Position numbers and translations under genes: made by a program. The notes beneath the pieces were generated by a model, which had not been told where the DNA came from, did no database searches, and saw nothing but the letters and a program-made list of their open reading frames with translations. 58,756 bases of DNA. It comes from Desulfobulbales bacterium. GTDB lineage: Bacteria > Desulfobacterota > Desulfobulbia > Desulfobulbales > BM004. Location of the stretch: the NCBI GenBank assembly GCA_041599275.1, contig JBFHWX010000003.1:1-58756 (forward strand). Direction: 5' to 3'. Below, piece after piece: positions 1,027 through 35,151 of the stretch (position 1 is the stretch's first letter; every line of letters starts with the position of its first letter).

Positions 1027-2025
1027 ATGAAAAGGATGAGACTCGAAGCCGTTTCACCGTCCCTGCGGTTTACCCTGTTGATTGGGGTGGTCTGGACCCT
1101 TTTTCTGGCAGGAGTATTTGCCTGGAGCTGGAGGGTGGAGCACGACCAGACCCTGCGGGTCACCACCGCCCAGACCCGGGTCCTGTTCCGCAAATTCCTG
1201 CTCACCCGTTTCTGGAACGCCATGCACGGCGGAGTCTATGTGCCGGTCAGCAAAGACACTCCATCCAACCCTTACCTCCAGGTGGAGAACCGGGACGTGG
1301 TGACCATGGGGGGGGTGCAGCTCACTTTGTTGAACCCGGCCTATATGACCCGGCAGATAGCCGACATTGCCGAGCAGAGTGAAGAGTTTTTCTTTCACCT
1401 GACCAGTCTCGATCCGATCAATCCGGAGAACCGGCCCGACAGCTGGGAGAAGGAAGCCCTGGAACATTTCGCCGAGGGCGCCACGGAGCACTACGGCATG
1501 GTGGAACAGGGGCCAGGGAAGACGGTTTTTCGGTTCATGGCGCCGCTGACCATCGAAGAGCCCTGTCTTCAATGCCACGACGTCTATGGAGACCGGGTGG
1601 GCGATCCGCGCGGCGGTATCTCGGTGGCCATCGACGCGACGCCGATACTTGCGGCGAGCGCGGCTGAAATCCAACACGCCGGCATCGTACTCGCGGTGAT
1701 CTGGTTATTGGGCATCATGGGCCTTGTCGGCGGCGGCAGGCGGCTGCACCGGCTCGAGGGAGAGCGGAACCTGGTGGTGGAGCAGTTGCGTGCTTCGCTG
1801 GCCGAGATCAAGCTGCTCGGCGGCCTGTTGCCGATCTGCTGCCAGTGCAAGAAAATCCGGGACGACCAGGGCTATTGGAAACAGGTGGAGCAATATATTG
1901 AACAGCATACGGCGGCCCGGTTTTCCCACGGGCTCTGCCCGGACTGCGCCCAGGAGCTGTACCCCGAGGCCTACCAGCGTCTGGTTCGTATGCGAGAACA
2001 TAAGAAAGAAGAAGAAAATTCCTAA
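1027..2025 (+). CDS. Membrane c-type heme sensor (DUF3365/Tll0287-like) with a C-terminal Cys/His-rich domain
   Basis: Two TM segments; HGGVYV, LNPAYMTRQ, SLDPINPENRPDSWE and CLQCH heme motif; C-terminal LLPICCQCKKIRDD..YW..FSHGLCPDC. Confidence 0.85.
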   Translation: MKRMRLEAVSPSLRFTLLIGVVWTLFLAGVFAWSWRVEHDQTLRVTTAQTRVLFRKFLLTRFWNAMHGGVYVPVSKDTPSNPYLQVENRDVVTMGGVQLTLLNPAYMTRQIADIAEQSEEFFFHLTSLDPINPENRPDSWEKEALEHFAEGATEHYGMVEQGPGKTVFRFMAPLTIEEPCLQCHDVYGDRVGDPRGGISVAIDATPILAASAAEIQHAGIVLAVIWLLGIMGLVGGGRRLHRLEGERNLVVEQLRASLAEIKLLGGLLPICCQCKKIRDDQGYWKQVEQYIEQHTAARFSHGLCPDCAQELYPEAYQRLVRMREHKKEEENS

Positions 2026-3570: not shown

Positions 3571-5829
3571 TCAGAATTTGCCGAACTCCTGGTCGCCCAA
3601 GGCGATCAGGTTTTCCTTTTTCGTGCTCTGCTGCGTTTTCTCAAGAGACACCTGGGCAGGGCGTTTGCCGGCTGGGGGCATCACGGTGCTGCTTTGTTGG
3701 CTTTTCTTTGGCAGCAGAAATTGCGAAAGTATTGCCTGCAGATGATCGGCCTGGGCCGAGAGTTCTTCAGCCGCAGCAGCTGACTCCTCGGCGGTGGCGG
3801 TATTTCGTTGGGTTACCTGATCGATCTGCCCGAGCCCCTGGTTGATTTGGCCGATGCCCTGGGCCTGGTCGTTGGCGGCGGCGGCGATTTCGGCGATGAG
3901 ATCGGATACCTTGGTGACGGTGGCGACGATTTCTTCCAGGGCGTCGGCGGTGCTGCTGGCTATCTCCGTGCCCCGGCCGGCCTTGTCCACGGAGCCTTCG
4001 ATGAGCTCGGCGGTTTCCCTGGCCGCTCGGGCGCTGCGGGCTGCCAGGTTGCGCACCTCTTCGGCCACAACGGCGAATCCCTTGCCGTGCTGGCCGGCCC
4101 GCGCTGCCTCCACCGCCGCGTTCAGGGCGAGAAGGTTGGTCTGGAACGCTATTTCGTCGATGACCTTGATGATTTTGGAGATGGAATGGGCAGAGGCGTT
4201 GATTTCGCCCATGGCATCGATCATCTCTTGCATCTGGCTGTTGCCCCGGTCGGCCTCTTTGCGGGCCTGGCGTGCCAGGAGGTCGGCCTGGTTGGCGTTT
4301 TGGGCCGAAAGGGTTATCTGCGAGCCGATTTCGGTCATGGAACCGCTGATCTCCTCCAGCGAGCTGGCCTGGGTCGACGCGCCATGGGACAGGGACTGGC
4401 TGCTGTCCGCCACCTGACCGGCACCGCTGGTGATCTGGTTGGAGGCCGATCTGATTTTGTCGATCACTGCGGAAAGGTTGGTCACCATCTTCTTGAGTGA
4501 TCTGCCCAACTGGTCCTTGTCGGAGGCGAGCTCCACCTCTACGGTGAGATCGTTGGAAGCGATGATTTCGGCCAGGTCGGCCTTGCGTTTGAGGCTGTCT
4601 GCCATGGTGTCCATGGCGGAGGCGAGAGCCCCGATTTCGTCCCGGCTATCGATGTTGAGCCGGCTGTCCAGATTACCGGCGGCGATTTCGGAGGTGATCG
4701 CCACCGCCCGGTCCAGGGGGCGCAGGAGGTAGCTGGTCAGCAGGAAGACCACCCCGGAGATGGCAAGAAGCACGAGCAGGCAGCCGGCGAGAAGTTTGTT
4801 CTGGATGGAGGCGAGGGAACTCTCCGCCGCCTGGTTCATTTGGGCGGTCAGGGAAAGGAACTCGTCGAGGTCGTAGGCCGCCACCATGACGCCCGCCTGT
4901 TTGCCGGAATAATCCGGGATCGGAAAGCTCACCACGAAATGGTTGCCGACCCGCTCTTTATAAACGCCGGTTTTGCCTTTTTCGAGAATGTCGAGGCTGA
5001 CCACCCTGGAGATGAGTTCCTGGTCGGTACTGGCGGTAAGAACGTGAAGGCCCCCCACCACCGGATGTTTGGCCGCGTCCTGGAGCCCTTTGGCGATGGG
5101 GAGACTCTCCGCGTTCATGTAGGCGGCAAGGCGAAAATGGTCGCCGGTCTGGGCGGCGGTGAGCACTTCGTCGAAGCCCACCAGTACCTCGCAGGAGCCC
5201 AGGTGCTCGCCGCTCGGCCCGGATACCGGTGCCATGCCCCGGATTTCGAAGCCTCCGCGCCCGACTTCGATGCCGGTTATCGGATTGTGGGGTGGTTGGT
5301 TTATTTCCACCACCGTCGGCCGAAACTTGGAGATGTCGTCGGAGACGTCGAGTTTTTTGCCGTCCCGGTTGACCTGCCAGCCCTGGCGCCAGATGCGGAC
5401 CAGGCTGCGGCTGTTGGGCAGATGGAAGTGCAGCTTAAACTCCTTTTGGCCGGTGTGCTTTGTGTATCCGGCCACGAAGGGTGCCAGCGCCCTGCGTAAC
5501 TCGTCCCTTGCCGCCTGGGCCATGGGATCGGCCTCGTCGTCGATGTTGCCGGTGTGGGCCAGCTCATAGGCATCCTGCACCGCTGGCATCTGTGAGAAAA
5601 GAGAGGCCTCTTCAAGGGCTTTGCCGCCGAAACGGTCGATGATCGAAGTTATTTCCTTCACCCGCTCATCCGCTGTGCTGGAAAGATTGTTGTAGGCGTG
5701 GTCCTCGGCGGTTTTCTTCTGCCGGGTAACGAGGTCCTTGACCGTGCCGTTAATGGCAAGGAGGCCGACTCCCAGGAAGATGAGGATAACCAGGCTGACG
5801 CTCAGCAGGATTTTGGTTCGTATTTTCAC
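3571..5829 (-). CDS. Methyl-accepting chemotaxis protein (Cache-type periplasmic domain, HAMP, MCP signal domain)
   Basis: [37 protein letters not shown]; two TMs; HAMP DEIGALA; GTG start with AGGAG RBS. Confidence 0.95.
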
Positions 5830-20736: not shown

Positions 20737-20747
20737 AGAGGTGAGGT

Positions 20748-21074
20748 ATGAAAATCACGGTGGACAGAAATGTCGTCGAGTTCAGACCGGAAAGCAATCA
20801 GGAAACCGCCGACCTCGAGGTACTGTGGCGGGTGGTAGTTGATTGCATGAAGGAAAACAAGAAAATGGTGGCCATCGGCGAGTATGTGCCGACCAAGGAG
20901 AACCTGGCCCGTTTCGTGATCGAAGGGGTGGCTGGTGGACAAACCACCTGGTCCGAGGCCAAGGCCGCAGCGGACGACACCTATTACTGTGCGGTCTGCA
21001 ACAAGTACATGAATGTCAAGGCCGGCCAGGGTGTGCCCATGTGCTGCGGCCGGAACATGGAAACCATGGATTGA
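20748..21074 (+). CDS. Small protein with a C-terminal desulforedoxin-like Cys4 site
   Basis: GAGGTGAGG RBS; C-terminal YYCAVCNK...PMCCGRNM matches the CxxC..CCG..M desulforedoxin pattern. Confidence 0.75.
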   Translation: MKITVDRNVVEFRPESNQETADLEVLWRVVVDCMKENKKMVAIGEYVPTKENLARFVIEGVAGGQTTWSEAKAAADDTYYCAVCNKYMNVKAGQGVPMCCGRNMETMD

Positions 21075-21111
21075 GAAAGAAAAGACACCATACTCAACAA
21101 GGAGGTAACCG

Positions 21112-26538: not shown

Positions 26539-26650
26539 TTCCGGGCTGTTCTTTTGCGGTTCTTTGCATTGAGTTGAGCGCCGGCGGCGTTAGGCTGGAA
26601 GCATGGCAAAGGTCAGTAACGCACCTCACCCGAAAACGGAGGAACCCGTC

Positions 26651-28072
26651 ATGCAGAAACAAAGATTACGTTCATTTCTCGCCGTCGCTTCGCTCATCGT
26701 CGTCACCAGTCTTCTCATGCTGGCCCAGGCCGGGGATCTCCCCGGCATGGTGCCCAAAAAGCCCATGCCGCCGCCTGCCGCCGGCCTTCTGCGCCTGGAC
26801 GGCCGCCTGGTGCAGGAACAGATCTTTACCGGTGGCGACGGCCGTTTCGAGTTGGCCTTTACCATGGATGCCACCGCCATGACCGCCGGCATGCTGGAAA
26901 CGTCGCAAGCGGTGGACGTGGTGGTGGTGCTCGACCGCAGCGGCTCCATGCAGGGCCAGAAGCTTGAGGACGGCCGCCGGGCACTGCTGGATCTTCTCGA
27001 CCGGTTGTCGGAGCAGGACCGGCTGGGACTCGTCACCTACAGCAACGATGCCGACATCATCTGTGATCTGCTGCCGATGAACGCTGGCAACCGCAGGCGG
27101 GCAGAAATTGCCCTGCGCTCGGTCGCCGCCGGCGGCGGCACCAATCTGGGAGACGGTTTGGCCGCCGGCCTCGCTCTCTTCAGCCGGGCCGGCGGCATGC
27201 GCAACCCCAACGGCCGGCTGATTCTCGTTTCCGACGGACTGGCCAACCAGGGGGTGGTGGATCCTGGACAACTCGGTGCCATGGCCGCCGGAGCGGTGCG
27301 GGAAGAGTTTTCGGTGAGCACGGTGGGCGTGGGCAGTGACTTCAACGAGCAGCTCATGACCCGTCTGGCCGACCAGGGCGGCGGCTCCTACCACTATCTC
27401 GAGGACCCGGCCCGGTTCGCCGCAGTGTTGCTGGAGGAATTCCAGACGGTGCGCCGCCTGGCCGCCACCGGGCTCGAGGTGGAGGTGGCCCTGCCCGACG
27501 GCGTCCGTCTGGTGGAAGCCGCCGGATACCCCATCGAGCAGCGCGGCCGGCTCGCCGTGTTCCGCCCCGGCGACCTGGAGGCGGGGCGCAAGCGTTCTCT
27601 CTTCCTCGGCTTCCAGGTGGACCCCGGCCAGGAGCGGCGCTACGAACTGGGCGAGATCACCGTCCGTTACCGCCAGCAGGGCAGCCGGGCGGAGGTTTCC
27701 TTCGACCGGCGGCTGGCGGTGAACTGCGTTGCCGACCGGGCTGTGGCCCTCTCCTCCATCGACAAGGACGACTGGGAGAAGAAGGTGCTGCAGGAGGATT
27801 ATTCCAGGCTGCGCGACGAAGTGGCGGGCGATATCCGGGAAGGGCGCCAGGAAGAGGCCATGGCCCGGCTCGACTCCTACCGGGCCGAAAAAGAAGAGGT
27901 GAACCGGGTGGTGGGCTCCAGCGCCGTGCAGGAGAACCTGGAGGCGGGCCTCGATGCCCTGCGCTCGCAGATCACCGAGACCTTTGCCGGAGCGCCCGCC
28001 GAAGTGGCGGCCAAACAGAAGGCCAGCGCCAAGGATCTGCAGTACCAAGCCTACGAGCAGCGGCGCAAGTAG
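26651..28072 (+). CDS. Exported von Willebrand factor A domain protein (YfbK-like)
   Basis: Signal peptide; MIDAS DRSGS, GGTNL, LVSDGLANQG, GVG.DFNE.LM..LA..GGG.Y. Confidence 0.9.
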   Translation: MQKQRLRSFLAVASLIVVTSLLMLAQAGDLPGMVPKKPMPPPAAGLLRLDGRLVQEQIFTGGDGRFELAFTMDATAMTAGMLETSQAVDVVVVLDRSGSMQGQKLEDGRRALLDLLDRLSEQDRLGLVTYSNDADIICDLLPMNAGNRRRAEIALRSVAAGGGTNLGDGLAAGLALFSRAGGMRNPNGRLILVSDGLANQGVVDPGQLGAMAAGAVREEFSVSTVGVGSDFNEQLMTRLADQGGGSYHYLEDPARFAAVLLEEFQTVRRLAATGLEVEVALPDGVRLVEAAGYPIEQRGRLAVFRPGDLEAGRKRSLFLGFQVDPGQERRYELGEITVRYRQQGSRAEVSFDRRLAVNCVADRAVALSSIDKDDWEKKVLQEDYSRLRDEVAGDIREGRQEEAMARLDSYRAEKEEVNRVVGSSAVQENLEAGLDALRSQITETFAGAPAEVAAKQKASAKDLQYQAYEQRRK

Positions 28073-28122
28073 ACGGAGAGGGCCGGGCGGCAAGAAACTA
28101 TCGACAAAAGGAGGCACTGATC

Positions 28123-28692
28123 ATGGGACTTATGACACGCTTGGTGAGGATCTGGAAGGCCGATGTGCACGGCGTCATGGATCAATTGGAGGACCGGCAG
28201 CTGGTGGTGAAGCAGTGTCTGCGGGAAATGGAAGAGGATCTGCTGCGCTTGGAGGCGCGTCTCGAACAATGCGACCGGCAACTCCGTGGGGCAGGTAAGC
28301 GGCTCGAGGAATGGCGCGATGAATTCCAGCGCCTTGGGGGTGACCTCGAGATCGCCCTGGAGGGTGGCAAGGAGGAGATCGCCCGGATGATCGTCAGAAA
28401 GCGGCTCGGGCTCCGGGCCCACATCGACGAAACCGAACGCCGGGCCGCGGCCCTTGACGAAGAGTGCGGCCGCCTCCGGGAAAAGCTTGCCGAGCGGCGC
28501 CGCATCCATGAGCGGTTGCAGGGCCGGGCCGCCGCCTCTTTCCCGCGGGGGCAAGAAAGCGGAAGCGGCCTGTGGGAAGAGGGCAGTCGCCTGGCGGTGC
28601 CGGAGCCGGAGGCCGAGGAAATCGAGCTCGAGTTGCTCAAGGAAAAGGCCCGGTTGCGGCAGGCGGCAACGGAAAAGGAGGTGAGGCCATGA
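28123..28692 (+). CDS. PspA/IM30 family protein
   Basis: MGLMTRLVRIWKADVHGVMDQLED..LVVKQ.LREME; AL..GKEEIAR; coiled coil; C-terminal IELEL..K. Confidence 0.85.
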   Translation: MGLMTRLVRIWKADVHGVMDQLEDRQLVVKQCLREMEEDLLRLEARLEQCDRQLRGAGKRLEEWRDEFQRLGGDLEIALEGGKEEIARMIVRKRLGLRAHIDETERRAAALDEECGRLREKLAERRRIHERLQGRAAASFPRGQESGSGLWEEGSRLAVPEPEAEEIELELLKEKARLRQAATEKEVRP

Positions 28693-29246
28693 CAGCGAGA
28701 AAACATCCCCTGCGCAGCACCATCGCCTATGGCCTGCTTGCCGCTCTTTTCCTGTTGCCCCTGGTCTCTTTTTTCGGCCTGCTGCTGCCTGGCGGCCGGG
28801 CACTGGCCGCAGCCGGGCTCCTGCTCATTGCGGGCTACGGCCTTCTGCTTGCCGCCTGGAGCGGAAATGGCCGGCGGCGGGGCGGGCTCATGGTTTTTCT
28901 GCTGCCCCTGGTGGTGCTGCTGGGCCATGGTACGCCGGCCCTCTTCTGGAGCACCGCTCTCGTGGCCCTGGCCTGGTACCGCAGTTTCTTCCTCTTTGGC
29001 GGCCGGCTACTGGTTCATCTGCCCCTCGAACTCATGCTCTGTGGCGGCGGCTGGTTTCTGGCCACAACCTGCGGCCTGGGAGGGGCTGCAGGACCGCTTA
29101 CTCTGATGTTCGGGGTCTTTCTGTTCTTCCTCGTCCAGTCCCTGTATTTCGTGGTGGGGAACCATGAAGGGGAGGGGGAGGCGGGGCATGATCCCTTTGA
29201 GGCGGCCCGTCGCCGGGCCGAAGCCGTGCTGGGGCCTGATTGCTGA
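28689..29246 (+). CDS. Hypothetical multi-pass membrane protein
   Basis: ATGA overlap with the PspA-like gene; several hydrophobic segments; FFLVQSLYF...DPFEAARRRAEAVL tail. Confidence 0.7.
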   Translation: MTARKHPLRSTIAYGLLAALFLLPLVSFFGLLLPGGRALAAAGLLLIAGYGLLLAAWSGNGRRRGGLMVFLLPLVVLLGHGTPALFWSTALVALAWYRSFFLFGGRLLVHLPLELMLCGGGWFLATTCGLGGAAGPLTLMFGVFLFFLVQSLYFVVGNHEGEGEAGHDPFEAARRRAEAVLGPDC

Positions 29247-29334
29247 TGGGAGCGGCAGCGGGTAAACAAACCGTCCCCATTGACCGATAAGACATGTAAG
29301 AGAAGATTCCGTTTATGCCAGGGAGGAAAACGCC

Positions 29335-29448
29335 ATGACATCCAGGGAAGCGGTCAAGATACTGATGCTCAGTCCTTTCTATTTCATCCTCACCCTGCCG
29401 GAGCGACGGATGCTGGTGGACGAGCTCTGCGCTCTGCACGGGCGCTGA
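29335..29448 (+). CDS. Small protein, 37 aa (absent from the ORF track)
   Basis: GGGAGGAAAACGCC-ATG; MTSREAVKILMLSPFYFILTLPERRMLVDELCALHGR; a terminator follows. Confidence 0.65.
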   Translation: MTSREAVKILMLSPFYFILTLPERRMLVDELCALHGR

Positions 29449-29472
29449 AAAGAGCGGGTAAATCCTATCCAC

Positions 29473-29526
29473 AGAGCGGCCTTGGCCTGGGTAAATCTTA
29501 CCCAGGTCAAGGCCGCTCTTTTTTTT
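29473..29526 (+). terminator. Long hairpin terminator (22-bp stem, one G-T pair) with an embedded palindromic site
   Basis: AGAGCGGCCTTGGCCTGGGTAA-ATC-TTACCCAGGTCAAGGCCGCTCT-TTTTTTT. Confidence 0.75.
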
Positions 29527-29576
29527 AAAAAAAGTTATTTTGTTGTTTTTGTGTATTGTTTTTTATTCGCCTGGGC

Positions 29577-29594
29577 CTGGCATGTCGCATGCAT
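29577..29594 (+). promoter_or_regulatory. Putative sigma54 promoter of sRNA-1
   Basis: CTGGCATGTCGCATGCAT with GG(29579-80)-N10-GC(29591-92), preceded by an AT-rich tract. Confidence 0.65.
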
Positions 29595-29604
29595 TACAGA
29601 GCGT

Positions 29605-29688
29605 AAGTTATGGCGAAGGTTTTCTCTTCCTCATACCTCCTTCCTTTCCCCGCACCCGGCCCTCCCCCTCAGGGCCGGGTATTTTTTT
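29605..29688 (+). ncRNA. Putative sigma54-dependent base-pairing sRNA-1 (~84 nt)
   Basis: Lies between a -24/-12 promoter and a + strand terminator ACCCGGCCCT-CCCCCTC-AGGGCCGGGT-ATTTTTTT; CU-rich core CTCATACCTCCTTCCTTTCCCC; no complete ORF inside. Confidence 0.6.
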
Positions 29689-29716
29689 GCCGAAAAAACG
29701 ACCCATTGGGGCGTTG

Positions 29717-32700
29717 TCATTGGTCGCTCTTCTTCTCGGCAGGCAGCAGGGGGCCAAGGATGGTGAAGGGCAGCATCAGGGTGTCCTTCACCATGCCAAG
29801 CAGACCCTCGCCGATGGCCTCCGGTGGCAGCACGGTGATGGCCGGCTCCGCCAGCGGCCCCTTCACTCCCAGGGGGATGGTGATCACCGTCTGCCGCCGG
29901 CCGCCGAGTACGCCCCCCAGGAGCGGGACCTTGCTGACGATGGCGTCCAGGGTTTTCAAAGGAGCGATGAGCACGGTCATGTCGGCGGTCATGCTTGCCA
30001 GATCGAGGCTGCCGAGGATGAAGAGGTCGATGCCCTCGCCGCGGACCAAAGCCCGTTTGATGGTGAGGATGTCGTGGTCGATTTCGGCCTCGAGGAGCAG
30101 TTGCGAAAAGGGAAAACCCTCCTGCTCGTAATCGTCCACCGTGGCGGCGGAGAGGATGCCGGTGAGATTGACCACGCTGAAAATTTGCGAGAGCATTTTC
30201 AACCGCAAAATCCGTCCCGCCCTGGAATGAACGGAAACGGAGCCCCGGGACCAGCGGCCGCTCGCCCGTTGCAGTTTTATGTCGCTCGAGAAGGAGCCGC
30301 TCACCACGTTCTGGCGGACTTCCAGGCAAGGCAGCACCTCCTCGAAGCGCAGTGGCTGGGCCGGATCGTTTTTGAGAAAAACGGTGCTGGCGCCCAGGGC
30401 GTCGCTTGAGTGGATCTCTCCCCGCATGGGCAGGCCACAAAGCAGAGCACGGTCGACGGTGATGGAAGAGCTCCGGCCGGGGTGCAGAGTGACGGTGCCG
30501 GCCAGCTCTTGAAAGGTCAGGGTGCGGGCCGGTTTTTCAGCCAGGGTGTGGGCGGTGGCGGTGGTGAAACGCCCGCAGGAGAAGCGGATGGTTCCCCTGA
30601 CAGAGTCGGCCAGGCCGGTTTTTTGCTGGTTTTCCGGGATGTTTTTTCTGGCTCCCTGGAGGTCGGCGAGGTACTGGCGAAAGTGCAGGGAGGAAAAGGT
30701 GGCGAGCAGGGAATCGAGGTTGTCGCGGCTCAGCGCCGCCGCCTTGAGATCGAGGCTGACCCGCGGCCCGGCGGAGTCGAAGTCCAGGCTGCCCCGGGCG
30801 GTCATTTCCTCGCCCCCGTACTGAACGGTTAGTTCGTCCACCGCCAGGGAGCTTTCCCGGCCGGCCAGGGAAAGGGCCGGGATGGAGAGGAAATCGTTTT
30901 CCGCCACCGGTTGCCAGATCATGGCGCGGCCTTGGAGGTTACCGGAAAAGTCCATCGGTTTGTCGCTGCCCTCTTCCCGCAGGAGCCAGTTTCCGGTGAG
31001 GGAGCCCTGCTGCAGGCTGCTTGTCTCGAAAAGCGCCTGCAAAGTGGCGGCCTCCAGGCTTCCTTGCCAGCGTATGGCAAATGGGCCGCCGTTCTTGGCA
31101 AGCCTGATGTCGAGCTCGAGGTCACTGCTTGCGGCACGAAACCGGCTCTCCGTGAGTTCGAAAATTTTTGGCGTGTTTCGCAGCTGGAACTGCACCGCTG
31201 GCTCCCCTGCACCGCCGCGGCCCGCCGCCACGGTGCCGTCCACCCGGGTCTCGCCGCTGCCCCAGCTCACCGAGAAATCCCGCAGGGTGCAGGGCAGGCG
31301 CGGAAAATAGGCCGGCGGCACCCATTTTTTTTCTTTGACCCAGCGGCCCGCCTGTTCCTCTACGGTGGTGTTGAGAAACAAAGTGCCCTGCCACGAGCGG
31401 AAAGCGGCGTGCTGGAGTGTACCGCTCAAGCCGATGCCGGTATCGCCCACGGTGCCGGTGAGTCGCTCCAGCTCGAGCCCGCTCTCCGAGAGGGTGGCGG
31501 AGCCCTCGGCGCCATGTACCGGGCCCGGCAGCAGGGGGGTCTGCCAGCCCAGGTTCTGGCCGGAAAAGGCGATACGGAAAGAGCGGCCGTCGTCCTTTCC
31601 CAAGCCGCCTTCGAACCGCGCCTGGTGCACGGTCAGGTTGCCGGAGGCGGTGGTGACCGTCTTTTCGAGCTCCGGGCCGCCCAGGCCGAGGCGGCGAAGC
31701 TCGGCCAGGAGCGCGCCGGCGTCGAGTTGGGCCGCCAGGCTTTCGAGGTGTAGAACCGTTTTCCCTTCACCCCAACCGACGCTGCCCGTTGAGGAGTCTA
31801 TCCGCAGTTTGCCGCTGCCGCCGGCTATTGCCTGCCAGCTCACCCGTTTCGGCTCCACCCGCAGTCCGCCCCGGCTGAGGGTCAGTGGATCGCCCAGGCG
31901 GTCGTAGCGGACAGTGGCCCGCTCCGTGGCCTTGATCTCGAGTTGGGTGGTTATCTCGTGCAGCCTGTCGCCCAGGAAAAGGTGGCCCCGGGCCCGGCCG
32001 CTGGCTTCGGAAAAGCGGCTGAGCTCGCGCCGAAAGGGCTCGCTGGGCACCACCCGGTGCAGCACCGCCGGCAGTTCGGCGAGGTCTGCGTCGAGGTCGA
32101 GACCGAGCGAAAAGGCCCGTTGTTCACCGGTCAGGTCGAGTCGCAGGGTACCGTTGGTGCCCCTGCTGTTTCCCATTTCGGCCGCAAGATCGCGGCCGCT
32201 CAGGGTGCCACCGGCAATCTCGATGGGGCCGCGGGCGCCGGTGAGTTTCAGGTCGCCGTAGGGTACGTGGATGGTGGCTCCGTCGACTTCGGCGGTGACC
32301 CGCATCGAATTGATGTCGCCAAAAGCGGCCGGCTCGCCGTGAAAGGAAAAGGAGGCGCTGCGGGCCGAGCCGCCCTGCACGATGTCGCAGACCAGTCTGG
32401 CCACTTTGTGCTCGCTCCAGAGGGCGAGAACAGCCCCCCGGACGCCGGTGAGGTCGACCCCGGCAGCCTCCAGATCGATGAGCCATCCGGCGGCCGGCGT
32501 TTCGCCGTCTCCCGAAAGAGCGGCCACCGGCAGGCGGGCCAGCCGGCCGTGAAGGGTGAAGGCAGGCTCATTCACCTCGAGCCGCTCGATGTCGAGCTCG
32601 AACGATTTCTCTTGCCGGTGCAGACTGAGGGCCGTTTTCCCCAGGCGGACCGGCAGGGAGGTGCTGCCGGTGGCCACCGAAAGAGAAGGCAGGTCGCCGG

Positions 32701-33442
32701 TCAGACGCAGGGTGTATTCTTGCTGGTTTGCAGCCTCGAGGGTACCGGTCCAGTCCAGGGGAGCAGTCTCGAGGCGCAACCGGCGGTCGAGAGCCGTCGG
32801 CAGATCCCCGGGCAGCTCGAGGCCGGAAAGCGTATACCGCAGGGAGGCGCGGCCCGAGGTGGGGTCAATGCCGCCTTCCACCGAAAGCAGGTTGGCAAGT
32901 GACACAACTCCGCTCTCGAGGCTGCCCGATATGCCGTCTGCCCCCAGGGCGATCCTGGCCTCGAGTGGCGAAAGCTCCAGGTGTTGGCGGCCGAGCAGCT
33001 CGCCTGTCTTCTCGTCGAGTTCGACAACAAGGGCGCCGTCCTGCAGCACGATATCGGCTCCGGGCAGGGCAAGTTTCCTTTGAACGCCCCCGGGTGCCAT
33101 TTCGGCCGGGTTGAGCAAGAGCCGGGGGCGCAGGCAGACGACCCGGCCGATGGCCACTCGGCCGGCGAGCAGCCCGACGACATCCGGAGAGATCCTGGTG
33201 TCGGGCAGGGTCGCGGTGAAGCCGGGTCCGCTCAGCCGGGCTTCGCTCAGGGAAAAGTGGGGAAAGGGCAGCCAGTGGAATTCGATGAGGGGGCACTCCA
33301 CCTGGCAGTCCAGGCGCAGGGCGAGCTGCTTGTTTATCTCTTCCCTGACCCGCTCGGTCTGCAGCAGGCGTGGGCTGAACACGGCGAGCAGGACGAGGAC
33401 GGCGGCCAGGATGAGAAATTGAAAGAGTCTCGTTCTTCGCAT
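29717..33442 (-). CDS. AsmA-like (YhdP/AsmA_2 C-terminal domain) envelope protein
   Basis: N-terminal TM anchor, long beta-rich body, C-terminal G..DL....D..VL.APLKT.D.IVSKVPLLG.VLGG....VKGPL.EP. Confidence 0.8.
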   Translation of the reverse strand: MRRTRLFQFLILAAVLVLLAVFSPRLLQTERVREEINKQLALRLDCQVECPLIEFHWLPFPHFSLSEARLSGPGFTATLPDTRISPDVVGLLAGRVAIGRVVCLRPRLLLNPAEMAPGGVQRKLALPGADIVLQDGALVVELDEKTGELLGRQHLELSPLEARIALGADGISGSLESGVVSLANLLSVEGGIDPTSGRASLRYTLSGLELPGDLPTALDRRLRLETAPLDWTGTLEAANQQEYTLRLTGDLPSLSVATGSTSLPVRLGKTALSLHRQEKSFELDIERLEVNEPAFTLHGRLARLPVAALSGDGETPAAGWLIDLEAAGVDLTGVRGAVLALWSEHKVARLVCDIVQGGSARSASFSFHGEPAAFGDINSMRVTAEVDGATIHVPYGDLKLTGARGPIEIAGGTLSGRDLAAEMGNSRGTNGTLRLDLTGEQRAFSLGLDLDADLAELPAVLHRVVPSEPFRRELSRFSEASGRARGHLFLGDRLHEITTQLEIKATERATVRYDRLGDPLTLSRGGLRVEPKRVSWQAIAGGSGKLRIDSSTGSVGWGEGKTVLHLESLAAQLDAGALLAELRRLGLGGPELEKTVTTASGNLTVHQARFEGGLGKDDGRSFRIAFSGQNLGWQTPLLPGPVHGAEGSATLSESGLELERLTGTVGDTGIGLSGTLQHAAFRSWQGTLFLNTTVEEQAGRWVKEKKWVPPAYFPRLPCTLRDFSVSWGSGETRVDGTVAAGRGGAGEPAVQFQLRNTPKIFELTESRFRAASSDLELDIRLAKNGGPFAIRWQGSLEAATLQALFETSSLQQGSLTGNWLLREEGSDKPMDFSGNLQGRAMIWQPVAENDFLSIPALSLAGRESSLAVDELTVQYGGEEMTARGSLDFDSAGPRVSLDLKAAALSRDNLDSLLATFSSLHFRQYLADLQGARKNIPENQQKTGLADSVRGTIRFSCGRFTTATAHTLAEKPARTLTFQELAGTVTLHPGRSSSITVDRALLCGLPMRGEIHSSDALGASTVFLKNDPAQPLRFEEVLPCLEVRQNVVSGSFSSDIKLQRASGRWSRGSVSVHSRAGRILRLKMLSQIFSVVNLTGILSAATVDDYEQEGFPFSQLLLEAEIDHDILTIKRALVRGEGIDLFILGSLDLASMTADMTVLIAPLKTLDAIVSKVPLLGGVLGGRRQTVITIPLGVKGPLAEPAITVLPPEAIGEGLLGMVKDTLMLPFTILGPLLPAEKKSDQ

Positions 33443-33706
33443 CGTCTGGCCCGGGCAGGCGACCGGTGGTCGGGAAATGCTGCGGGGCCGGCAAACAGGC
33501 AACGCAGCGTGGGAGGTCGGAAAAAATGTTCTGGCCCGGGCTCGCCCCGGCGAAACGGGTGGTTTCGTGGAGAGAGGGTCCTCTGGGACGCGGGGCCGAA
33601 GAGCCTTTCAAGGTATCATTTTTCCAAGGAGTCCACAAGGCGGATCGCGGCGAAGCGAATGCACCGGGTTCGGCGGCATGGTCTTCACTCGCTGGACGGG
33701 ATGAAA

Positions 33707-33902
33707 GTAAAAAAAATTGTACGCCGTTGGGGGATCGCTTCCCTGCCCCTCGCCTGCTGGGCCTTTTCGGTGGCATGGCGGTCGACCGGCGGTTGTGTTT
33801 TTTGTGGTTAAAAAAATTGTACCTGTTGGGATGTCGCGGGTTTATGACATTTTCCACCCTGGCGAGCTGGTGGGCGGCAGAGAAAAGTTTAAAAAATTGT
33901 AT
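33707..33902. repeat. Three dispersed copies of GTWWAAAAAATTGTA plus an ATGTC-N10-GACAT palindrome (candidate enhancer sites)
   Basis: Copies start at 33707, 33807 and 33887; palindrome at 33831-33850. Confidence 0.65.
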
Positions 33903-33990: not shown

Positions 33991-34008
33991 GTGGCATGCT
34001 GGTTGCAA
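33991..34008 (+). promoter_or_regulatory. Putative sigma54 promoter of sRNA-2
   Basis: GTGGCATGCTGGTTGCAA, near-consensus TGGCA(C/T)-N5-TTGCA; GG 33993-94, GC 34005-06. Confidence 0.75.
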
Positions 34009-34017
34009 TACCTATGG

Positions 34018-34093
34018 CAAGAGCCAATTAGCTCTTATCTCCTTTCTCCGAAAAGGCCGGCCTTGTCCCCCCAAGACCGGCCTTTTCATTTTT
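34018..34093 (+). ncRNA. Putative sigma54-dependent base-pairing sRNA-2 (~76 nt)
   Basis: 5' hairpin AAGAGC-CAATTA-GCTCTT; unpaired ATCTCCTTTCTCC; terminator GAAAAGGCCGGCCTTG-TCCCCC-CAAGACCGGCCTTTTC-ATTTTT. Confidence 0.62.
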
Positions 34094-34212
34094 AAGGTTT
34101 CCCCGTTTTTTTCAAAGAAAACCATGACCGCCGGCCGGGCTGCGGCTCCTGCGGTTTGCGCGCTTCCGGCCGGGCAGTTTTGCCGCGGGAAGCCGTGTCT
34201 TCCTGGTGCGCG

Positions 34213-35151
34213 ATGGAATTGACTGAAACAAAGGTGGCGCTTCAGGCATGCGCCGGATACCGGCTCCAGCCCATGAAGGACGGGGTCGAGCATTTGTGCC
34301 GAGCCCTCGGCTTTTCGGTTTCCGCCGGCCAGCGAATTCTGCTCAAGCCCAACCTGGTGAGCGGCGGAGCCAGCAGTGGGCTGTCCTGTACCCACCCCCG
34401 GTTCGTGGTGGCGGTGGCGCAGTGGTGCCTTGACCATGGGGCGCGGGTGGCGGTGGGTGATTCACCGGCCTTCGGCTCTGCCCGTTCGGTGATGGCCGCC
34501 TGTGGCTTGCTGGATGCACTGGGTAAACTGCCGGTGCGGTTGGCGGATTTTTCCAAAGTGCGGCGGGTGCGTTTGGCTTCGGGAGAGGAGGTGGGACTTG
34601 CCGAGGAGGCCCTGCAGTGCGACGAGCTGGTCAATCTGCCGCGGGTCAAGGCCCATGGGCAGCTCTTTGTCACCCTGGCGGTGAAGAATTATTTCGGCAC
34701 CGTGGTCGGCCTTCGCAAGCCGTGCTGGCATATGCGTCATGGCGGGCAAGCGGGCCGCTTCGAGGAACTGCTCGTCGATCTGCTGGCGGTCCTGCCCGGC
34801 GGCATCAGCCTGGCAGATGGTATCGAGGCCATGCACCGGGACGGGCCGGTTTCCGGCGAGCCCTTTGCCCTTGGGGTGCTCGGGGCGAGCCGCAATCCGG
34901 TGGCCCTCGACACGGCGCTGCTCGAGATCCTGCGGCTCTCGCCTGGTGCCAGCCCCCTGTGGCGGGAAGCGGCCCGCCGCCGGCTTCCCGGCGTCCGGCT
35001 GAACCATGGGGATTTTGTGCTCAACCAGCCGGCGGAGTTGGCCAGGGCCGGCTTTCAGGCGCCGGCGGAGTTGCAGCCTATCCGTTTCCAGCCCTGGCGG
35101 GTGGCCCGCGGCGTTGGCAAACGGTTGCTGACTTTCCTGGTTCGGCGTTGA
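34213..35151 (+). CDS. DUF362 domain protein
   Basis: ILLKPNLV...CTHP, VGDSP.FGS, NLPRVKAH...TLAVKNYFG, DGIEAM...GP..G, NPVALD. Confidence 0.88.
   Translation: MELTETKVALQACAGYRLQPMKDGVEHLCRALGFSVSAGQRILLKPNLVSGGASSGLSCTHPRFVVAVAQWCLDHGARVAVGDSPAFGSARSVMAACGLLDALGKLPVRLADFSKVRRVRLASGEEVGLAEEALQCDELVNLPRVKAHGQLFVTLAVKNYFGTVVGLRKPCWHMRHGGQAGRFEELLVDLLAVLPGGISLADGIEAMHRDGPVSGEPFALGVLGASRNPVALDTALLEILRLSPGASPLWREAARRRLPGVRLNHGDFVLNQPAELARAGFQAPAELQPIRFQPWRVARGVGKRLLTFLVRR

Follow-up and report, generated by a model that had tools for sequence, protein, structure and literature searches.

The segment 29604-29688 on the + strand of the window (the whole stretch of 58,756 nt that was analysed) is, judged from its sequence, an independent and conserved small-RNA gene. 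The predicted RNA, sRNA-1, is preceded by a sigma-54-type promoter and ends at an intrinsic terminator. Comparison with relatives gives good support to both the gene and its control region. The reading that we favour, with a probability of roughly 55%, is that sRNA-1 is induced by sigma-54 and blocks the ribosome-binding sites of several mRNAs without the help of Hfq; the proposal rests on features of the sequence and on analogy with characterised small RNAs. The features of the locus are listed in Table 1.

Table 1. Features of the sRNA-1 locus and its surroundings (window coordinates; a dot stands for a feature given without strand)
Feature	Position	Strand	Description	Basis or remark
Possible distal activator site	29457-29471	.	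Weaker palindrome copy	By eye; failed the 5-of-6 half-site test
Hairpin, terminator-like end of the upstream + genes	29473-29527	+	20 pairs (29473-29519), then T8	Tip holds the palindrome
Palindrome, putative activator site	29489-29503	.	Perfect, 15 bp; 6-base half-sites, 3-base spacer	88 bp before the promoter block
AT-rich spacer	29520-29572	.	53 bp, 19% G+C (genome, 63%)	Between palindrome and promoter
Sigma-54-type promoter of sRNA-1	29578-29593	+	-24 GG at 29579-29580, -12 GC at 29591-29592	Canonical spacing
sRNA-1, predicted small RNA	29604-29688	+	~85 nt	Covariance-model homologues, fold, promoter spacing
5' hairpin of sRNA-1	29609-29635	+	Purine-rich arm 29609-29619 pairs with first pyrimidine box 29625-29635	Predicted fold
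Second pyrimidine box, proposed seed	29636-29651	+	16 bases, C/U only	Predicted single-stranded
Intrinsic terminator of sRNA-1	29654-29688	+	10-bp stem, C-rich 7-base loop, T7	Hairpin and T-run
Weak hairpin, possibly the terminator of yhdP	29693-29716	-	Hairpin, then T6, directly after the yhdP stop	Sequence
yhdP (YhdP/AsmA family)	29717-33502	-	1,261-codon ORF, convergent with sRNA-1	Likely true start, ATG at 33441
sRNA-2	33991-34090 (including promoter)	+	Unit of ~75 nt, on the far side of yhdP	Canonical sigma-54 promoter

RNA body, terminator and control region

The preliminary description of this DNA had started from a 10-bp hairpin with a T7 tract on the + strand, close to an AsmA-like gene that ends on the - strand, and had proposed that the hairpin terminates a + transcript of its own. 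These points held. The stem occupies 29654-29680, eight of its ten pairs are G-C, and it is followed by an A and by the T7 tract (29682-29688), so that a G+C-rich stem-loop stands directly before a T-run on the + strand, as in an intrinsic terminator. On the - strand of the window no T-run was found beyond this hairpin. The nearest gene is the YhdP/AsmA-family ORF, with its stop codon at 29717-29719. A separate + transcript was suggested by the sigma-54 promoter 60 bases upstream, which was absent from the earlier reading, and by the joint conservation of promoter, RNA body and terminator. In an alignment of 15 copies of the element (see below) 95.4% of the cells of the terminator stem were paired and 8 of its 13 pairs had changed on both sides. 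None of 500 shuffles equalled this covariation, nor did any slid register come close.

The start of sRNA-1 was taken 12 nt after the C of the -12 element, which puts the predicted 5' end at ~29604 (+/- 2) and gives the length of ~85 nt. The + strand RNA 29600-29690 folded at -28.9 kcal/mol (z = -2.96), and 1 of 200 shuffles folded as well. In the predicted fold the first pyrimidine box (box 1) is half hidden by the 5' hairpin, with an unpaired probability of 0.56, whereas the second (box 2) is exposed: its unpaired probability is 0.87 in the window copy and 0.88 on average over 15 copies (range 0.59-1.00). A comparable 5' hairpin appeared in the minimum-energy folds of 9 of the 15 homologues and is not universal. 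The homologues have no common start codon or reading frame, and sRNA-1 is thus non-coding.

The 11-base core at 29632-29642 is, as the preliminary description had stated, the reverse complement of a Shine-Dalgarno (SD) sequence joined to a start codon. Only the SD part of this proposed seed stood up to comparison: the anti-SD-like, pyrimidine-rich stretch is conserved and predicted to be unpaired, but the three bases complementary to ATG were found in none of 14 homologues. A conserved pyrimidine-rich stretch that is predicted to be accessible, the seed type of trans-acting anti-SD RNAs, is therefore present. The eight bases 29635-29642 are identical to what we take to be the 3'-terminal anti-SD stretch of 16S rRNA; no 16S gene was found in the assembly.

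The promoter of sRNA-1 has ten bases between the GG and the GC, and the flanking consensus letters also match. The strict -24/-12 pattern occurred 18 times on both strands of the 3.5-Mb genome, where ~8 matches would be expected (an estimate from base composition). Most of the 18 matches have AT-rich, intergenic-looking surroundings, and that of sRNA-1 lies in an otherwise gene-free gap. The genome contains rpoN (one Sigma54_DBD match, 211 bits) and genes for enhancer-binding proteins (23 Sigma54_activat matches, 170-258 bits).

Upstream activating sequences lie ~80-150 bp before the promoter, and the distance of the perfect palindrome falls within this range. The palindrome is most likely the binding site of a sigma-54 enhancer-binding protein, and we regard it as a putative upstream activating sequence. 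A palindrome of the same type was found upstream of the promoter block in 9 of the 14 homologous loci with enough upstream sequence, at distances of 88-169 bp (110-114 bp in seven of the nine). In two homologues (L058, L059) the palindrome is repeated ~30 bp farther upstream, and in the window the weaker copy is located 32 bp upstream of the proximal palindrome. BLAST, which is insensitive to sites of 15 bp, detected no second copy in this genome or in G001.

The proximal palindrome forms the tip of a hairpin which the preliminary description had assigned, as a terminator at 29473-29526, to the genes upstream. These genes (for a VWA protein, a PspA/IM30-like protein, a hypothetical protein, and a 37-codon ORF) are on the + strand and end before it, and with its T8 tract the hairpin does look like a terminator. 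Termination did not stand as its sole role: because the palindrome at the tip is conserved upstream of the promoters of the homologues, the hairpin probably serves both as terminator and as activator site. The AT-rich spacer that follows is possibly a bending or IHF region. The predicted layout upstream of sRNA-1 is that of an enhancer-dependent sigma-54 promoter.

The gene of the cognate activator was searched for near the RNA. No Sigma54_activat domain was found in the window ORFs scanned, which were 84 of the 91 ORFs of at least 200 aa plus two ORFs of 189 and 37 aa; the remaining seven overlap real genes on the other strand. Among 13 relatives, in which 32 of 71 ORFs were scanned, there was no activator gene within 1.5 kb of sRNA-1.

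Some features of the surroundings may be recorded here. The VWA-domain, PspA/IM30-like and hypothetical genes (26603-29246, +) make up a small envelope-stress-like group adjoining sRNA-1. The 37-codon ORF (29335-29448, +), situated between the PspA-like operon and the upstream hairpin, has a good ribosome-binding site and no Pfam match. The window as a whole is rich in envelope genes (PBP1-type transglycosylase, SLT-LysM, type II secretion, acyl-ACP synthetase/acyltransferase fusion).

Conservation in family f1 and the sister RNA

Searched by BLASTN against 40 relatives and the genome that it comes from, the element gave only short matches at chance level. The nearest genomes show only 30-50% identity, even in the YhdP protein, and a query with the YhdP C-terminus against genome and metagenome contigs found no locus of a closer relative. 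Since plain BLASTN did not reveal relatives, the DNA beyond the yhdP stop codon was compared in the loci of 29 relatives. In seven of the 29, yhdP is followed by a unit on the opposite strand which consists of two pyrimidine runs and a terminator, preceded in all but one of the seven by a -24/-12 block. Six copies were used to train a covariance model, which gave full-length matches (41-110 bits) in 15 of the 19 family f1 genomes, and nine of the 15 were outside the training set. The model did not find sRNA-1 in G002 (83% complete), G014 (88%), G004 (90%) and G007 (98%).

In the alignment of the 15 copies the two G of the -24 element are kept in 15 and 14 copies, and the next two letters as well as the -14/-13 letters in 13. 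The C of the -12 element occurs only in the window copy; in the 14 relatives this consensus base is replaced by A, T or G, which makes their promoters atypical. Purines are rare in the boxes: there are four in the ~180 cells of box 2 (12 columns) and 11 in box 1. Two copies, those of G011 (L070) and G006 (L071), keep the RNA body and the terminator but lack both the sigma-54 promoter and the upstream palindrome. Sigma-54 control is therefore not obligatory for the sRNA-1 family, and these two copies must be either transcribed differently or decaying.

Most copies are convergent with a yhdP/asmA gene. In six genomes of genus g2 (G012, G001, G017, G013, G006, G018) the unit lies beside other genes, with a rubrerythrin-like neighbour in at least five. 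The distance to yhdP on the same contig is ~2-2.3 kb in G001, G013, G017 and G006; for G012 only a shorter distance applies, and in G018 no yhdP was found. The genus g2 copies away from yhdP still keep the pyrimidine boxes. Promoter, boxes and terminator behave as one conserved block, whereas the genes on either side and almost all of the remaining intergenic sequence vary. At the g2 loci L064, L065, L067, L068 and L071, sRNA-1 is directly downstream of a 206-codon frame with a C-terminal rubrerythrin domain; by eye, the N-terminal part of this frame is rhodanese-like.

The genome-wide sigma-54 pattern scan yielded a promoter at 33992, which belongs to a second predicted small RNA, sRNA-2. The unit is divergent from yhdP and lies just before a DUF362 gene (34156-35151); besides the window, 4 of the 14 loci that were inspected have sRNA-2 directly before a DUF362 gene. 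The two RNAs are built alike: in each, a sigma-54 promoter is followed by a 5' hairpin with a CU-rich 3' arm, then by a CU box that stays single-stranded, a spacer rich in A, and a terminator whose loop is rich in C. With the sRNA-1 model, sRNA-2 scores 35 bits, and apart from sRNA-1 itself nothing else in the genome matches this model over its full length. Unlike in sRNA-1, the -12 element of sRNA-2 is canonical in all 16 aligned copies. Upstream of sRNA-2 there are three direct repeats (near 33708, 33810 and 33890) that do not resemble the sRNA-1 palindrome and may be its activator sites. Because the upstream repeats differ, sRNA-1 and sRNA-2 are probably driven by different activators.

A second sRNA-1 model, run against 151 genomes of the order, matched in 62. 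The best 15 matches outside family f1 were not sRNA-1, and most of them carry the sRNA-2 signature. Thus many families of the order have sRNA-2, whereas sRNA-1 was not found outside family f1; this distribution makes sRNA-1 look like a family-specific paralogue of an order-wide RNA. In a phylum-wide sample the sRNA-2 model matched in 8 of 151 genomes, six of the eight outside the order.

Two further observations were made at other loci. The locus 1501-1605 (-) of G010:C87 (L076) is a candidate for a third type of sigma-54-promoted small RNA; the candidate RNA has a 5' hairpin, then a single-stranded stretch closely resembling the 3' end of 16S rRNA, and then a terminator. On G000:C225 (~4968-5090, +), at the contig end, a 20-base stretch occurs three times, every 61 bases, in the manner of a CRISPR array.

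Targets and possible modes of action

The favoured mode of action can be outlined as follows. RNA polymerase with sigma-54 would bind the -24/-12 promoter and would start transcription only when an activated enhancer-binding protein is bound to the proximal palindrome and perhaps also to the distal copy, with the AT-rich spacer helping the DNA to loop. The transcript would end at the 10-bp hairpin plus T7. Box 1 would be partly hidden by the 5' hairpin, and box 2, remaining single-stranded, would pair with the purine-rich SD regions of several mRNAs and block the ribosome without Hfq. Repression is what we infer from three observations: the exposed tract complementary to SD sequences, the lack of detectable Hfq, and the fact that the closest analogues cover ribosome-binding sites. 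The search for the Hfq gene was negative in all 19 family f1 genomes, including one rated 100% complete, and the control genomes matched as expected.

The preliminary description had named two mRNAs of the window as possible targets. Both 9-base matches exist: the one at 20743-20751 overlaps the ATG of a 108-aa desulforedoxin-like ORF, and the one at 21099-21107 lies four bases 5' of the ATG of a 51-aa rubredoxin-like ORF. As targets they did not rise above chance. Each 9-mer complementary to the core occurs 8-10 times in the 3.5-Mb genome, and the crude duplex energies of the two sites (-18.9 and -17.7 kcal/mol) are within the background of -16.1 +/- 5.8.

In the whole genome there are 254 perfect complements to sRNA-1 of at least 10 nt, including the gene itself. 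The longest non-self complement, 14 nt, occurs twice (~0.5 expected, an estimate). Neither of the two is in a recognisable gene, and the ORFs concerned have no family match; one of the complements is just after an ATG, in an ORF that may be spurious. When 11,109 ORF starts were ranked by a crude duplex energy, spurious ORFs rich in G dominated the list, and the start region of yhdP has no purine-rich site. The perfect-match and crude duplex scans of the genome yielded no target above chance.

The exchange of C for U within a tract made of pyrimidines only fits protein binding as well as it fits pairing with purines. sRNA-1 could accordingly be a decoy whose boxes and C-rich loop titrate a pyrimidine-binding protein, for example ribosomal protein S1 or another RNA-binding regulator. 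We consider this unlikely, even though each copy carries three C/U-rich elements in columns that tolerate C-U exchange and almost no purines, no specific mRNA target emerged and Hfq was not found. The locus offers no candidate for a protein partner, and the region of box 2 includes the eight bases identical to what is presumably the anti-SD end of 16S rRNA. Moreover, the characterised CU-rich small RNAs of similar layout are described as acting by base pairing in the cited accounts (PMC10746234, PMC11187230).

A broader and likewise improbable proposal takes sRNA-1 and sRNA-2 as two inputs of one system. Different sigma-54 activators, each responding to a signal of its own, would turn on RNAs that carry a copy of the mRNA-docking sequence of the ribosome, and in these bacteria without Hfq the RNAs would be broad, dose-dependent dampers of initiation at strong SD sites, or decoys for an SD- or pyrimidine-binding factor, and not regulators of a few genes. 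Their conserved placement on both sides of yhdP, an envelope lipid-transport gene, would tie them to envelope stress.

To an action in cis on yhdP, in which convergent sigma-54 transcription or antisense read-through RNA would disturb the 3' end of yhdP, or the hairpin would chiefly be a shared bidirectional terminator, we give little credence. The convergent arrangement is conserved, the unit directly follows yhdP in seven loci, in G005 the yhdP frame and the terminator overlap at the end of the frame, and the genus g2 hairpin is symmetrical, with an A-run leading into the stem and a T-run following it. In the window, however, no T-run follows the hairpin on the - strand, and yhdP is followed by a weak hairpin with T6 of its own. 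In the six g2 genomes the boxes are kept although the unit is beside other genes, and a mere terminator would need neither a conserved promoter nor pyrimidine-only boxes.

We are equally sceptical that sRNA-1 pairs with mRNAs but activates them, by opening an inhibitory structure or by protecting them from RNases, or that it pairs inside coding regions. The sequence does not fix the sign of the regulation and one 14-nt complement follows an ATG, but the ORF in question has no family match and may be spurious, and the core is complementary to SD-like purine runs, the covering of which usually means repression. Finally, that there is no small RNA at all, the promoter match being one of the ~8 estimated to arise genome-wide by chance and the hairpin merely insulating convergent genes, is very improbable in view of the conservation of promoter, boxes and terminator as a single unit in 15 of the 19 genomes and of the conserved palindrome at a fixed distance upstream.

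Relation to known small RNAs

A description of the sRNA-1 family was not found in the open-access literature searched. With Rfam, no family reached the gathering threshold anywhere in the window, E-value searches of 28800-30400 and of five homologous loci returned nothing relevant, and no model matched sRNA-1 or sRNA-2. The best match, the alpha-r14 family (RF02344), was considered and rejected: sRNA-1 scored 21.5 bits (E = 0.2) against a gathering score of 58.8. Small RNAs that depend on sigma-54 are established, with GlmY/GlmZ and the Qrr RNAs as classic examples. sRNA-1 represents a new family, not catalogued so far, within a kind of regulator that is already known.

Qrr RNAs are driven by LuxO together with sigma-54 and need Hfq, and GlmY acts by protein mimicry. 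To our knowledge, neither GlmY/GlmZ nor the Qrr RNAs have a CU-rich anti-SD seed of the sRNA-1 type. They are like sRNA-1, as predicted here, in being driven by sigma-54, in having an upstream activator site and in occurring as siblings that share one effector part. For GlmY/GlmZ, sigma-54 is reported to act with GlrR and IHF (PMC3045617).

CJnc230 (FlmR) of Campylobacter jejuni is described as an RpoN-dependent RNA of ~98 nt which acts in trans on mRNAs, and in which two hairpins flank a single-stranded stretch with a short anti-SD sequence (PMC11187230). sRNA-1 resembles it in the sigma-54/RpoN-type promoter and in the anti-SD stretch between two hairpins. CJnc230 is part of the flagellar cascade, with its gene downstream of flgE (PMC11187230), whereas sRNA-1 differs in having a predicted promoter and activator site of its own, in its place beside yhdP and in its much longer pyrimidine tract, and it has no apparent sequence similarity to CJnc230.

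NfeR1, an alpha-r14 or 'cuckoo' RNA (RF02344), blocks ribosome binding by CU-rich motifs without Hfq (PMC10746234). According to the same account it has a sigma-70 promoter and three hairpins, each with one identical 9-base motif in its loop; in the alpha-r14 RNAs generally, two or three hairpin loops display this motif (PMC10746234). Several CU-rich anti-SD motifs in unpaired regions are a feature that sRNA-1 shares with the alpha-r14 RNAs as described there. Unlike in NfeR1, the main CU box of sRNA-1 is in a single-stranded linker, and its only loop motif, that of the terminator, differs in sequence.

Further parallels come from sulfate reducers. The sigma-54 regulome of Desulfovibrio vulgaris Hildenborough is reported to contain four non-coding RNAs, with a separate activator for each (PMC4641369); Dv_sRNA2 is described as a target of DVU0679 (PMC3333781), and two sigma-54-dependent non-coding RNAs are given for D. 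alaskensis G20 (PMC4045070). Like sRNA-1, these RNAs have, in the published accounts, a -24/-12 promoter and tandem palindromic activator sites ~100 bp upstream (PMC4641369, PMC3333781, PMC4045070). They adjoin the genes of their activators (DVU0653, DVU0679, DVU1419, DVU2359), whereas no activator gene was found near sRNA-1. The motifs of these four regulons were also compared with the sRNA-1 palindrome by their site sequences and rejected: the binding sites listed for them (PMC4641369) are all unlike it.

In sulfate reducers, according to published work, non-coding RNAs without a known function are often under the control of sigma-54 activators, and sRNA-1 and sRNA-2 extend this observation. 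Should different activators drive one and the same effector sequence, the pair would be a simple case of signal integration at the level of RNA, though not a new principle. Hardly any regulatory RNAs are known from this group of anaerobes, most of which are uncultured. sRNA-1 has an unusually readable control region, in which activator site, bendable spacer, sigma-54 promoter, RNA and terminator can all be predicted, and together with sRNA-2 it offers a concrete handle on post-transcriptional control without Hfq.
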